The position numbers are program-made. Below, in pieces: positions 33,001 through 36,000 of a stretch of 64,000 nucleotides of DNA. The DNA is from Sphingomonadaceae bacterium (lineage in GTDB: Bacteria > Chloroflexota > UBA6077): contig JBLNDL010000050.1 of the NCBI GenBank assembly GCA_050261575.1, positions 1-64,000 of the forward strand, in the 5' to 3' direction. Position 1 is the stretch's first letter; every line of letters starts with the position of its first letter.

Positions 33001-36000
33001 CGCACCTCGTCCAGGAGCATGGTCTTGCCGATACGTCTGAGTCCGAGGAGAGCCAAATGGCGTTGGTCACCCTGATCGAGAGCCACCAGCAGTTCGTCGA
33101 AAAGTGCAAGCTGTGATCGTCGGTTGACGAAAACGGTGGTTGTGGCGGCCATCCCTGCCATCGCCCTCCCGCGCGTGTTGTGGTATTCTGTAACCCATCT
33201 GGATTATAACCCAAATGGGTTACAGAATACCACAATCGTGTCCGCATCTCTCCGAGATTCTCCCAAGCGAGGATCCCCTGTTCTGCCGATTGCCTACGGT
33301 GCGAGACCGCTGGCTCACTCCCAGCCTGCCGAACTCATTAGCGGACGGACATGCTCATCATCATCGTAGCATCGCACCACAGTGTTCACCGTTGGCGACT
33401 CGTTCCAACGGCCGAGGAAGCTACTTGCCTCCTTACCCTGTCGGCGAGATCGACTATCCTGGAGACTGGCCCCCTCTTACAAGCAACTCCTCGACCCGAA
33501 ACGGAGGAAGGCGACCAGCAAGGTGATGCCCAGCTTCAAGAATAGAACACAGGCGCAACGATTAACAGGCCAACAGTAGCTTTGTGGAGGCCTACTCATA
33601 GAGGAACGGGGAGGACACGGCATAGCTCGATTGATCTCCGGGCAAAGGGGATGTATGATGGCAGAGACAATCGAAATAGGGTTGCTAGGGGGGCGCGTCG
33701 GCGCTGAGAGTGCGGCCGTGGGGCCGCTGACCCTCGAACCTGATCTGGGTAATACCAGCGAAGGGAAGCACGACCTCGAGCAGTTCGGCCGCCATCCCGG
33801 GATGGCGGCCTTTCGTCACTCCCCCGCGCACCCTTCCGAGTACCCGTCTTCTGTGTCGGAAGGAGTACAGAGATGGCAAGCGAACTGCCCACCATTGGGA
33901 AGATCTCGCCGGAGATCTTCGACGAGATCATCCTGCCGCGCCTGGGGGCGAGATCCCCTCACATTCTGGTGGGGCCGCAGCACGGCGTCGACGTGGGCAT
34001 CGTCGACCTGGGCGGCGATCAGGTGATGGCCCTCACCACAGATCCCTTCTTCATCGTCCCGCAGTACGGTTGGGAGCGGGCGGCGTGGTTCGCCACCCAC
34101 ATCCTCGCCTCCGACGCGGCCACCTCGGGGCTTCGCCCCACCTACTTCACCGTCGACCTCAACCTGCCCCTCTCGGTGACCCGCGAGGCTCTGGAGATCA
34201 TGTGGACCACGGTCCACCGAGAGTGCGAGAAGATCGGCATGTCGGTGATCACCGGCCACACCGCGCGGTACGAGGGCACGGACTTCCCCATGGTGGGTGG
34301 CGCCACCGTGGTCTGCGTCGGACCCAAGCACAGGTTCATCACCCCGAACATGGCTCGTGTCGGCGACCAGGTGATAGTCACCAAGGGTGCCGCGATCGAG
34401 GCCACGGGGCTCTTCGCCGCCTCACTCCCCCACCTCGTGGCGGAGCGGTACGGCGAGGAGTTCGCCCGGCGGGCCGACAAGGTATTCGACATGATGAGCG
34501 TGGTCGAGGACGCAATGACGGCGGTCACGGTCGGGGTTCGGGACGACGGGGTCACCACCATGCACGACGCCACCGAGTGTGGGGTATGGGGTGGGCTGTT
34601 CGAGATCGCCCAGGCCTCGGGGGTCGGCATGCAGATCGACAAAGACAAGATCATCGTGCTGGAGGAGGTGCGGAAGATCTGCGACATGTTCAAGATCGAC
34701 CCTTACTCCTCCATCAGCGAGGGAACGCTGCTGCTCACTTGCCGGCCTCACAAGGCATCGGAGGTGGTGCGGGTCCTGTCCGACAAGGGCATCCCGTCCA
34801 GCATCGTCGGAGAGGTCACGCCGCAGGAGAAGGGGATGGTAGTCTTCGAGGGCTCGGCCTCCCGACGGCTGGAGCACCCGCGGGTGGACCCCTTCTGGAA
34901 GGCCTTCGGGGACGCCATCGCCACCGGTAAGGCGCCCGATCCCGCGTAGCACTCTTGCGAGGTAGGTGGGGCGCAACGTTGCGCTCGATCGCGTCGCGCC
35001 CCACCACGGACCACCCTGCCCAGGTTCCGTCACCCCGTCGGGTGATTCCGCACGAAGGTGTGGCCCGCCACGATCTCTCGCCTTCCTTGACTTTGGCCCA
35101 TCCGGTTGATATCCTCCCCATGCAGCATCGTGGGGGCGAGCGCGCACTCGCCCCTGTTTGGATTCGGGTTAGGTCCGGCGACGCGATGCGCGCTGTCCTC
35201 ACACCGTGAGCCTTCCGCCGGAGGGGTCGCGCCTGTCCCGCAGGGAGAGCGGGAAGTCTATCCAGGGAGGAACCCACTACGGCCAGCCAGCAGCCAACTC
35301 ACACCTCACACGCCCCGGGAGAAAGGGAAGCCGTCGCCGTAATCGACTTCGGCTCCCAGTACAGCCAGTTGATCGCCCGCCGGGTGCGGGAGTGCAACGT
35401 TTACTGCGAGCTGATCCCATACTACGCCCCTGCGGAGCGTCTGGCATCCCTCAACCCGAGGGGATTCATCCTGTCGGGAGGCCCCGCCAGCGTCTACCAG
35501 GAAGGCGCGCCCCAGTTGCCGTCCCACATCCTGGAGAGCGGGCTACCGATCCTCGGCATCTGCTACGGCATGCAACTGCTGGCCCACCGGTTGGGTGGAC
35601 GTGTGGCGCCCGGCGCCAGGCGGGAATACGGCCACGCCGAACTGCGGCTGGATCAGCCCGTCGCTCGCCTCTTCGAGGGGCTGCCGGAGAAGCTCCAGGT
35701 GTGGATGAGCCACGGCGACGTCATCACCCAAATCCCCCCCGGCTTCCGCTGCCTGGCCCACACCGAGAACTCTCCCCTGGCGGCCATGGGGAACGACTCC
35801 GGCGTGGTCGGGCTCCAGTTCCACCCCGAGGTCGTTCATACCCCCCTTGGCAAGGAGATCATCAAGAACTTCCTCTACCGCGAGTGCGGGTGCACCGGCT
35901 CCTGGACCCCCGGCTCCTACATCGCGGAGACCGTCGCCAAGATCCGAGAGCAGGTGCGAGACGGTCGCGTCATCTGCGCCCTCTCCGGTGGCGTCGACTC

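Follow-up and report, generated by a model that had tools for sequence, protein, structure and literature searches.

What does a protein of the PurM superfamily do directly behind a thiamine pyrophosphate (TPP) riboswitch? The question is raised by a gene, g01756, in the 64,000-nucleotide stretch of a Chloroflexota contig (JBLNDL010000050.1) that we analyzed, hereafter the window, where the riboswitch is followed by the reading frame of a 358-aa AIRS/AIRS_C protein that we call X. A first-pass annotation had interpreted X as an uncharacterized ATP-dependent enzyme of thiamine biosynthesis or salvage, most likely a supplier or converter of AIR on the pyrimidine branch. Here, we examine the leader, sequence, fold, gene neighborhoods and phyletic pattern of X, and propose that it is probably a new kinase of the PurM superfamily that phosphorylates the thiazole moiety at its hydroxyethyl group, an analogue of ThiM and, in one further X-bearing Chloroflexota family (f24), of ThiK.

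The X gene lies behind a TPP riboswitch

The features of the locus, all on the forward strand, are as follows.

33631..33659, + strand: candidate sigma-70-like promoter, TTGATC-17-TATGAT, by consensus match
33677..33783, + strand: TPP riboswitch aptamer (RF00059, 64.3 bits; gathering score 54.3)
33787..33810, + strand: 10-bp GC-rich hairpin followed by UUUCG (sequence and minimum-free-energy fold)
33844..33876, + strand: predicted helix over part of the Shine-Dalgarno sequence and the ATG (minimum-free-energy prediction)
33873..34949, + strand: gene X, PurM-superfamily protein of 358 aa (AIRS and AIRS_C), proposed thiazole hydroxyethyl kinase acting on 4-methyl-5-(2-hydroxyethyl)thiazole (HET) and/or thiamine

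An Rfam scan recovered the aptamer over the full length of the model (positions 1-105, E = 3.1e-11) as the sole match within 30000-38000, confirming that a TPP riboswitch stands directly before g01756; it is one of three in this genome. The promoter candidate agrees with the consensus at 9 of 12 positions and sits 18 nt 5' of the riboswitch, in a region with two sigma-70-like sites against a shuffle mean of 0.2. Downstream of the aptamer, two predicted structures may form the expression platform. The hairpin could be a weak terminator arm; a simple terminator scan, which demands a T-run, did not pick it up and found no terminator. The second helix partly encloses the Shine-Dalgarno sequence of X (GGAAGGAG, 33858-33865) and may act as a translational arm, and minimum-free-energy prediction for the whole 204-nt leader gives z = -2.2. 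Plentiful TPP would bind the leader RNA and shut off the X gene. On its other side, X stands upstream of guaA-purD-purE-purB-purC.

X is a distinct member of the PurM superfamily

X belongs to the PurM superfamily by virtue of an N-terminal AIRS domain (PF00586, 46 bits) and a C-terminal AIRS_C domain (PF02769, 72.7 bits), both above their cut-offs, and it falls short of every NCBIfam cut-off, reaching 98.1 bits against 251.6 for hypE (TIGR02124), 78.2 against 184.15 for thiL (TIGR01379), its second-best match, and 66.2 against 125 for selD (TIGR00476). The PurM model TIGR00878 is not among the 19 NCBIfam families listed for X at E ≤ 1, and PDB chains of PurM match only at E = 0.003-0.1. Likewise, PF02110, the family of ThiM and hydroxyethylthiazole kinases (HK), gave no match in X at E ≤ 1. 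In a tree, X branches outside ThiL and PurM. Canonical PurM (on contig C17), PurL, ThiL (266.9 bits, TIGR01379), SelD and HypE are all encoded elsewhere in the same genome; together with the missed cut-offs, this upholds the earlier statement that X is neither PurM, ThiL, SelD nor HypE.

The best PDB match by sequence is a HypE (2z1e, E = 1.2e-13). An AlphaFold model of X (pLDDT 96.5) is closest to the folds of HypE, ThiL and SelD in Foldseek (TM-scores 0.65-0.75, the highest for HypE), and the matches to these three and to PurM all have a probability of 1.00. Residues D57, D81, D232 and G128-x-T130 align with ThiL, SelD and HypE of the same genome; they are conserved residues of the superfamily, the aspartates being those that bind metal and ATP, which supports the view that X is a competent enzyme. 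Three further motifs, YGWER, MHDATECG and a C-terminal HPxVDPFW, are invariant and particular to X. HypE carries a cyano group on its C-terminal cysteine, and the host HypE ends in ...PRIC; X ends in ...GKAPDPA, without a cysteine. SelD has an N-terminal Cys/Sec beside a conserved Lys, of which the N-terminus of X, TIGKISP, holds the Lys and no Cys. We also considered a SelD-like sulfide kinase making thiophosphate, suggested by an N-terminal GK(I/L)S motif and by sulfur-gene neighbors, and dropped it as the lead because the host HypE has the same motif and the thiamine-specific patterns described below are much stronger.

The family is large. Orthologs sharing 60-70% identity with X are found in more than 10 phyla and a minimum of 568 species genomes, archaea also encode orthologs, and a family search returned 6526 matches at E ≤ 1e-10; the earlier description of an orphan branch of Chloroflexota is therefore too narrow. 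Many of the genomes compared here are metagenome-assembled. Public records label it 'AIR synthase family protein', 'HypE' and 'hydrogenase maturation factor', and the ESM Atlas offers only the first of these for X. We consider the HypE and hydrogenase maturation annotations most likely wrong. A full-text literature search, whose scope excluded RegPrecise, SEED and a Chloroflexi B-vitamin survey, returned no paper on the family.

The riboswitch and thiamine genes recur beside X

Of 85 ortholog loci, drawn from many phyla, 26 have a TPP riboswitch upstream of X on the same strand, as do all five f24 loci and L129, so that the recurrence first seen in distant Chloroflexota holds on a wider scale. 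Another precedes a 36%-identical paralog of X whose next gene is ThiE, and two genomes (G141 and G090) have no TPP riboswitch other than that in front of X. At 26 of the 85 loci, a gene for ThiE, ThiN, TenA, ThiD, Thi4 or ThiL lies no more than two genes away on the same strand, in arrangements that include X-TenA-ThiE-ThiL, X-ThiE, X-ThiE-ThiD, Thi4-X, X-ThiL and X-ThiDN. The adjoining ThiL genes are canonical in score (289-317 bits; cut-off 184). In G128 and G286, X is followed by ThiN, a non-homologous analogue of ThiE. These associations support the part of the first-pass interpretation that made X an enzyme of thiamine biosynthesis or salvage.

At 47 of the 85 loci we found neither a riboswitch nor a thiamine neighbor. 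Sulfur-type neighbors (cysteine desulfurase, NifU, MnmA, HcyBio/NIL, MOSC or NadA) occur at 21 of the 85 loci, mostly in one subclade of Dehalococcoidia, Omnitrophota and Latescibacterota, and a salvage kinase does not explain them. The surroundings of X yielded no thiazole transporter; the unassigned downstream ORFs are mostly spurious or non-membrane. A methyltransferase was rejected as a general partner; those at L056 and L070 are orthologous (64% identical) and the one in G071 is unrelated to them (25%).

Among X-bearing genomes, the riboswitch-X pair is found in 15 of 24 that have no thiazole synthase versus 3 of 26 that have one. Riboswitch control of X tracks dependence on X, which we count in favor of a thiazole salvage role.

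X is complementary to ThiM and coincides with a thiazole phosphate gap

Across 251 Chloroflexota genomes, 41 encode ThiE but neither ThiG nor Thi4, the latter searched phylum-wide by scoring only 10 candidates per genome. These 41 divide into 27 with ThiM only, 12 with X only, none with both and 2 with neither. As the 12 X-only genomes nearly all belong to one class, the split reflects a few evolutionary events rather than 39 independent ones. X and ThiM never occur together in the 251 genomes, while ThiG and ThiM do so in 8. Across phyla, a real ThiM is present in 2 of 50 X-bearing genomes, of which 14 have ThiG, 13 have Thi4 and 24 have neither. X and ThiM coexist in two Thermomicrobiales genomes (G028 and G041), whose X-ThiE-ThiD operon also supplies ThiD, and X is therefore no strict equivalent of ThiM.

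Of 30 X-bearing Chloroflexota, 18 encode ThiC, which rules out X as a ThiC substitute, in agreement with the first-pass annotation; canonical ThiL is present in 28 and ThiD absent from 24. The gap is seen in 15 Dehalococcoidia-type genomes, eight of them complete or near-complete at 1.4-1.9 Mb. All 15 encode ThiC, ThiE or ThiN, ThiL and X, none encodes ThiD or ThiM, and Thi4 was found in one (G155) among 10 scored candidates per genome. Two of the genomes were inspected for ThiD2, an already characterized monofunctional HMP-P kinase, and both encode it, G071 as a fusion with ThiE and G107 as an ORF of its own, which rules out X as the missing HMP-P kinase there. With these genes in place, thiazole phosphate is the sole step left unfilled. 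HET auxotrophy, with ThiC, ThiD, ThiE, ThiM and ThiL, is described as a recognized pathway variant in 114 gut genomes (PMC6593275).

Family f24 presents a different gene set. Here ThiE (0/12), TMP-TENI (0/5), ThiN (0/9), TPK (0/5), ThiC (0/9) and ThiD (0/9) were all missing from the genomes searched. Retained are ThiL and an operon of riboswitch, X and an ABC transporter, which includes an NMT1/THI5-like binding protein 41-43% identical to the TPP-controlled one of the host genome.

The host genome itself (100% complete) encodes ThiG, ThiS and, in addition to X, ThiD, and has no ThiM. Its reported lack of ThiC holds; for TenA, one tblastn query gave no match. Given de novo thiazole synthesis through ThiG and ThiS and the absence of ThiM, X would here be a TPP-repressed salvage kinase.

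X as a probable kinase for the thiazole hydroxyethyl group

We infer the reaction and substrate(s) of X from its context, namely the riboswitch, the family, the neighborhoods and the phyletic patterns. Where ThiE or ThiN is present, X would phosphorylate salvaged HET, or possibly carboxylated HET, to thiazole phosphate at the expense of ATP, and would thus be a non-orthologous replacement of ThiM. In f24, which has lost ThiE and ThiN and kept ThiL, X would instead convert imported thiamine to TMP and feed ThiL in the manner of ThiK. Since the Dehalococcoidia-type genomes point to HET and f24 to thiamine, dual or diverged specificity must be assumed; X could be one enzyme for both substrates or comprise specialized subgroups. 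Of the first-pass interpretation, the ATP-dependent thiamine enzyme of the PurM superfamily is supported and the pyrimidine/AIR placement is not. X was also described as an additional enzyme of a pathway regarded as complete; it does appear to be a thiamine enzyme, and is better seen as taking over a known salvage step from a non-orthologous enzyme.

Alternative functions of X

An activity on the pyrimidine side, as an HMP kinase or HMP-phosphate kinase that replaces or complements ThiD and receives HMP from TenA or ThiXYZ-type import, is unlikely in our assessment. X-TenA-ThiE-ThiL operons would form a linear route if X activated TenA-made HMP, the NMT1/THI5-like binding protein encoded with X in f24 is of a type associated with pyrimidine precursors, and ThiD is missing from most X-bearing Chloroflexota. 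Moreover, the chemistry that an HMP-P kinase needs, phosphorylation of a phosphate ester, is that of ThiL in the same superfamily. However, the HMP-P kinase step is taken by ThiD2 in both inspected genomes, and a full ThiD is encoded in the X operon at three Thermomicrobiales loci, at the archaeal ThiDN locus L020 and at L070; the host genome, too, has both X and ThiD. This assignment would leave 12 ThiE-bearing and 3 ThiN-bearing genomes without a source of thiazole phosphate and the exclusion of ThiM without a reason, and in f24 neither ThiE nor ThiN is there to consume HMP-PP.

Two further proposals strike us as slightly less probable still, and equally so. In the first, X is the key enzyme of an undescribed third route to thiazole or its phosphate in anaerobes without ThiG and Thi4, driving activation or ring closure with ATP and taking sulfur from a cysteine desulfurase or sulfide. 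PurM offers a parallel, as it uses ATP to activate a formyl oxygen and in this way closes a five-membered ring. About half of the X-bearing genomes have neither known thiazole synthase, several of them retain riboswitch-controlled ThiC, and NifS, NifU, MnmA, HcyBio/NIL, a ThiI-like gene and MOSC recur beside X (for example X-ThiN-NadA-NifS in G128), so that such a route would account for both the thiamine and the sulfur-gene neighbors. Against it, X coexists with ThiG or Thi4 in many genomes and shares an operon with Thi4 at L064; a synthase would be redundant there, while a salvage kinase would not. X is also never found with ThiM in Chloroflexota, whereas ThiG is. Further, a thiazole would be of no use to f24, which lacks ThiE and ThiN, the sulfur neighborhoods are concentrated in one subclade, and it is unlikely that one enzyme of 358 aa builds the ring by itself, with no conserved unknown partner seen.

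In the second, X is solely a thiamine kinase (thiamine to TMP) in all lineages, and the thiazole phosphate gap of Dehalococcoidia-type genomes is filled in some other way. This agrees with f24, which keeps ThiL, X and a transporter in the absence of ThiE, ThiN and TPK, with a two-gene X-ThiL operon behind a TPP riboswitch at L039, and with the Thermomicrobiales genomes that have both ThiM and ThiD, where X would be the sole non-redundant kinase. It would mean, however, that streamlined genomes of 1.4-1.9 Mb retain riboswitch-controlled ThiC and ThiE, and ThiD2 where inspected, with no thiazole phosphate to use, and it explains neither the tight adjacency to ThiE and ThiN nor the exclusion of ThiM.

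That X supplies or converts AIR for the pyrimidine branch, or is a second, divergent ThiL, as its superfamily, the host purine genes downstream and the thiL score might suggest, is very improbable: the host genome has no ThiC to consume AIR and has canonical PurM and ThiL (267 bits), canonical ThiL accompanies X in nearly all X-bearing Chloroflexota and often in the same operon, X branches outside both families, and the purine neighborhood is absent from the 85 other X loci. The pyrimidine placement is further opposed by the exclusion of X by ThiM rather than by pyrimidine genes, and by the Dehalococcoidia-type genomes, in which the pyrimidine branch is accounted for (ThiC in all 15, ThiD2 in the two inspected) and the gap lies at thiazole phosphate.

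Comparison with known enzymes and significance

As a hydroxyethyl kinase, X would catalyze the reaction of ThiM, HET to thiazole phosphate for ThiE. The two have operon partners in common (TenA, ThiD and ThiE), and ThiM, like X, mostly belongs to genomes that lack both ThiG and Thi4 and in some cases accompanies ThiG. They differ in fold, that of the PF02110 HK family in ThiM being unrelated to AIRS/AIRS_C, and in their tie to ThiE, which is missing from only 1 of 36 ThiM genomes, whereas X persists in f24 without ThiE or ThiN. With ThiL, X shares superfamily and fold (TM-score ~0.65 to Aquifex ThiL complexes), the metal/ATP-binding aspartates, a substrate in the thiamine pathway and often an operon, but it scores well under the ThiL cut-off, lies outside the ThiL branch and coexists with ThiL. 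Whereas ThiL phosphorylates a phosphate, X is proposed to phosphorylate an alcohol, and we know of no member of the PurM superfamily that does so.

The ThiK of enterobacteria belongs to a different kinase family from X; its reaction, thiamine to TMP ahead of ThiL, is what X is proposed to carry out in f24 and where X and ThiL form an operon. ThiK is named as a signature enzyme of salvage (PMC6593275). HypE is the best match of X in sequence and structure, but X has no C-terminal cysteine, no hydrogenase context and a score far under the hypE cut-off. The closest precedent in kind is ThiD2, by which a canonical kinase of the same pathway was replaced with an unrelated family in the same organisms, although ThiD2 belongs to another protein family (PF17792) and acts on the pyrimidine branch.

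If X is a thiazole hydroxyethyl kinase, a very large, strongly conserved and mis-annotated protein family would gain a function, and alcohol phosphorylation would be added to the reactions of the PurM superfamily, to our knowledge for the first time. Together with ThiD2, it would be the second case in the same organisms of an unrelated protein taking the place of a canonical thiamine kinase. The thiazole phosphate gap would be closed in Dehalococcoidia-type genomes, complete ones of 1.4-1.9 Mb included, and in many uncultured anaerobes, and the vitamin B1 vitamers, thiazole or thiamine, that such organisms are predicted to need from their communities would change.

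A PurM-superfamily protein encoded downstream of a TPP riboswitch

The first-pass annotation placed a TPP riboswitch before the gene of a 358-aa PurM-superfamily protein (hereafter X), and Rfam recovers the element at full length, its 64.3 bits lying above the gathering score of 54.3; no other Rfam family matches within positions 30000–38000. A simple terminator scan of the X leader returned no terminator.

Features around X in the window
31455–33161 (−): 568-aa ORF, 5’ of X and divergent, containing a P-loop-like GLRRIGKT; no Pfam match at E ≤ 1e-6
33631–33659 (+): sigma-70-like site just 5’ of the riboswitch
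33677–33783 (+): TPP riboswitch
33787–33810 (+): 10-bp GC hairpin followed by UUUCG, 3’ of the aptamer
33844–33876 (+): predicted helix overlapping the start codon (ATG) and, in part, the Shine-Dalgarno sequence
33873–34949 (+): X, with AIRS and AIRS_C domains
35369–36859 (+): guaA (Pfam GATase and GMP_synt_C)
between guaA and purE (+): purD, name assigned by eye
38373–38849 (+): purE, name assigned by eye
38946–40256 (+): purB, name assigned by eye
40253–41176 (+): purC, name assigned by eye

Immediately 3’ of X, and on its strand, comes the purine/GMP cluster (35369–41176); no such purine genes were seen 3’ of X at 85 other X loci.

X reaches no NCBIfam cut-off (hypE, 98 against 251.6; thiL, 78 against 184; selD, 66 against 125), and in a FastTree phylogeny of 154 sequences, with local support values only and long deep branches, X and the proteins of those 85 loci form one tight clade (support 99) separate from ThiL, SelD, HypE, PurM and the clade of a more distant paralog from the same genome. 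The earlier statement that X is neither PurM, ThiL, SelD nor HypE is thereby upheld. Its closest PDB relatives are HypE (E = 1e-13), SelD and ThiL at ~20% identity, which an AlphaFold model of X (pLDDT 96.5; 73 sequences in the alignment) matches about equally (TM-scores 0.75, 0.67 and 0.65). Judging from the retained superfamily residues D57, D81, D232 and G128-x-T130, X should bind ATP and metal. The paralog, a second orphan of 334 aa (G000:C8:52242-53246; L015:6243-7247, +) whose clade is sister to X, also falls below all NCBIfam cut-offs; it adjoins an acetyl-CoA-synthetase-like (ADP-forming) gene, and no thiamine context was seen at its locus.

The genome that carries X (100% complete, 103 contigs) encodes separate PurL, PurM, HypE, SelD and canonical ThiL (266.9 bits) proteins. 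It has three TPP riboswitches, located ahead of X, of thiE-thiG(-thiS) (contig C52) and of an ABC transporter whose binding protein is NMT1/SsuA-like (contig C77). ThiD (330 bits) and two ThiF-like genes are present, together with ThiH-like (298 bits, under a cut-off of 380) and ThiO-like (180 bits, under 251) genes. ThiC and ThiM gave no match, and TenA, Thi4 and ThiN gave no tblastn match with one query each, in keeping with the reported lack of ThiC and TenA. By this inventory the organism appears to import the pyrimidine moiety and make thiazole in-house, with no known thiazole or thiamine kinase.

Distribution and gene neighbourhoods of X

X had been described as an orphan of Chloroflexota, which did not hold. 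Of the 8000 candidates scored in a search of 5.8 billion proteins, at least 6526 match at E ≤ 1e-10; the top 120 share 67–91% identity with X and are annotated, for example, as ‘AIR synthase family protein’, ‘HypE’ and ‘hydrogenase maturation factor’. In a 50%-cluster library 398 clusters match at E ≤ 1e-30, and at least 568 relatives stand among 599 pattern matches listed from contigs (one genome per species). Beyond Chloroflexota, X occurs in phyla that include Deferrimicrobiota, Syntrophobacteria, Planctomycetota, Calditrichota, KSB1, Latescibacterota, Rokubacteria, Omnitrophota, Ignavibacteriota and Zixibacteria, and a Desulfurococcales archaeon has a copy at 46% identity.

The pairing with the riboswitch does recur, as first proposed, and it spans many phyla: at Rfam gathering score, scans of all 85 fetched loci (L017–L101; 5/20, 10/20, 8/20, 2/20 and 1/5 by batch) found a TPP riboswitch 5’ of X and on its strand in 26, and none in 59, a few of which have <250 nt of upstream sequence. 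At locus L064, Thi4 lies between riboswitch and X. Pfam scans of 136 and a further 20 same-strand neighbours placed a thiamine gene no more than two genes away from X at 26 of 85 loci; no thiazole transporter adjoining X was seen. Altogether 38 loci carry at least one of the two signals, riboswitch or thiamine neighbour, and 47 carry no thiamine signal.

Thiamine genes beside X, by locus
X-TenA-ThiE-ThiL (ThiL genes tested, 289–317 bits): L023, L026, L033, L042, L065, L069
X-TenA-ThiE: L034, L044, L056
X-TenA: L024, L035, L046
X-ThiE: L027, L038, L041, L052, L054, L057, L061
X-ThiE-ThiD: L063, L076, L084
Thi4-X: L064
X then a ThiD fusion: L070
X-ThiL: L039
X-ThiDN: L020

In genome G253 (L126:4297-6185, contig C27) a paralog 36% identical to X coexists with a true X ortholog; the paralog carries a TPP riboswitch of its own and has ThiE after it, so the thiamine link reaches deeper branches of the family. 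An Rce1-like (CPBP) membrane protease gene lies next to this pair (L126:6236-7171), and others lie 3’ of riboswitch-controlled thiC in two Dehalococcoidia-type genomes (L138:3686-4426, L140:8238-9020); the protease may be an overlooked part of the thiamine regulon. SAM-methyltransferase-like genes, 64% identical to each other, stand between riboswitch and X at L056 (566–1267) and L070 (286–1002) and are unrelated to the methyltransferase adjoining X in genome G071. A fluoride riboswitch lies 3’ of X at L067, and selenocysteine tRNA genes lie 0.3–1.9 kb from X at two Rokubacteria loci (L082:5286-5380, L099:4304-4398).

Occurrence of X relative to ThiM and thiazole synthases

Gene counts among 251 Chloroflexota genomes
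X (E ≤ 1e-60): 36 genomes, 34 strong or intermediate
ThiM: 36 genomes
ThiG: 78 genomes
Thi4 (10 candidates scored per genome): 8 genomes
ThiE: 127 genomes

Four unpublished genomes are included in these counts, G269 and G195 (each with X), G223 and G088, on which alone no conclusion rests. The sole genome with matches to both X and ThiM is G140, where the X-like match is weak (233 bits). Of the 41 genomes that have ThiE and lack both ThiG and Thi4, 27 have ThiM only, none has both, two have neither (one of them 57% complete) and 12 have X only, nearly all of one class and hence a few evolutionary events rather than independent counts. Where ThiG or Thi4 is present, X stands alongside in 9 genomes and ThiM in 8; X thus resembles ThiM in its relation to the de novo thiazole synthases, and the two exclude each other.

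Across phyla, among 50 genomes behind 50 X loci, real ThiM (≥ 230 bits) occurs in two, the Thermomicrobiales G028 and G041, whose X-ThiE-ThiD operon also supplies ThiD; 10 more have partial matches only (20–29 bits). Thi4 occurs in 13 and ThiG in 14, both in one and neither in 24. Of 18 riboswitch-controlled X genes, 15 fall in the 24 synthase-less genomes and 3 in the 26 with a thiazole synthase (naive Fisher p = 3e-4, the genomes not being independent).

Pathways with a missing step

Canonical ThiL occurs in 28 of 30 X-bearing Chloroflexota; just 6 of the 30 carry ThiD, each together with ThiG. The 15 genomes of the Dehalococcoidia-type families (f26, f18, f42, f44, f37 and f57) all possess ThiC and have neither ThiG nor ThiM; of these, G155 alone has Thi4. 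ThiE is a ThiD2-ThiE fusion in G071, and in G107 an unfused ThiE adjoins X and a ThiD2 ORF lies near ThiC. ThiN takes the place of ThiE in G128, G191 and G286, directly after X in two of the three; in G128 the order is X-ThiN-NadA-NifS. In these genomes ThiC stands behind a TPP riboswitch, as does X-ThiE in G107. With ThiC, a TMP synthase, ThiL and X present (and ThiD2 in the two genomes inspected), thiazole phosphate supply is the sole step without a gene. PMC6593275 describes an ‘Az’ variant (ThiC, ThiD, ThiE, ThiM, ThiL) in 114 gut genomes, auxotrophic for 4-methyl-5-(2-hydroxyethyl)thiazole (HET); set against that account, the Dehalococcoidia-type pathway is this variant with X in place of ThiM.

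Family f24 of Chloroflexota has X in 10 of 12 genomes and lacks ThiE, ThiG, Thi4 and ThiM (0/12 each), ThiN, ThiC and ThiD (0/9 each), and TMP-TENI and TPK (0/5 each), with ThiL above cut-off in 7 of 9. All five f24 loci have a TPP riboswitch directly 5’ of X, the genome’s only one in the two genomes tested (G141 and G090), and the genes after X encode an ABC ATPase, a permease and an NMT1-like binding protein. With ThiL retained and TPK missing, a thiamine auxotroph requires a thiamine kinase, for which X is the obvious candidate. The f24 proteins are 49–56% identical to the window protein and differ from the main clade at six consistent positions, including C236R and I281S beside conserved active-site motifs.

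Proposed function

We propose that X probably phosphorylates the hydroxyethyl group common to HET and thiamine, as an analogue of the HET kinase ThiM and the thiamine kinase ThiK. The reaction would be ATP-dependent. With ThiE or ThiN present, X would yield thiazole phosphate, the role of ThiM; where these are missing it would yield TMP for ThiL, the role of ThiK. TPP on the leader RNA would repress X, which in the window’s organism would be a salvage enzyme next to ThiG. If X is such a kinase, HET is the likelier substrate in most lineages, thiamine is the likely one in f24, and one enzyme may serve both. Several results weigh against this proposal: X and ThiM coexist in the two Thermomicrobiales genomes, which also have ThiD in the X operon; the phyletic counts are interdependent; 47 of the 85 loci carry no thiamine signal; and no thiazole transporter turned up beside X.

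That X is instead an HMP kinase we consider unlikely. Sulfur genes beside X are not accounted for by the proposed kinase: cysteine desulfurase, NifU, MnmA, HcyBio/NIL, MOSC, a ThiI-like gene, SufBD or NadA mark 21 of 85 loci, almost all in one subclade of Dehalococcoidia, Omnitrophota and Latescibacterota (FastTree) within which the riboswitch- or ThiE-linked copies L052, L057 and L064 are nested. These sulfur and Fe-S surroundings (21 loci over L060–L101; for example L095, L078 and L127) have NifS and Rrf2 among their genes. A step in a new sulfur-dependent thiazole route would explain these genes, but fits poorly with X alongside ThiG and Thi4 and with f24, and is distinctly improbable.

Full-text searches, which did not extend to subscription journals, RegPrecise or SEED, gave no description of the X family or of a PurM-type thiazole/thiamine kinase, and a term search of the main text of riboswitch survey PMC2258182 found no mention of X; the family may nonetheless bear a prior name. 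If the proposed kinase activity is true, a known salvage reaction would be performed by a different, unannotated enzyme family.
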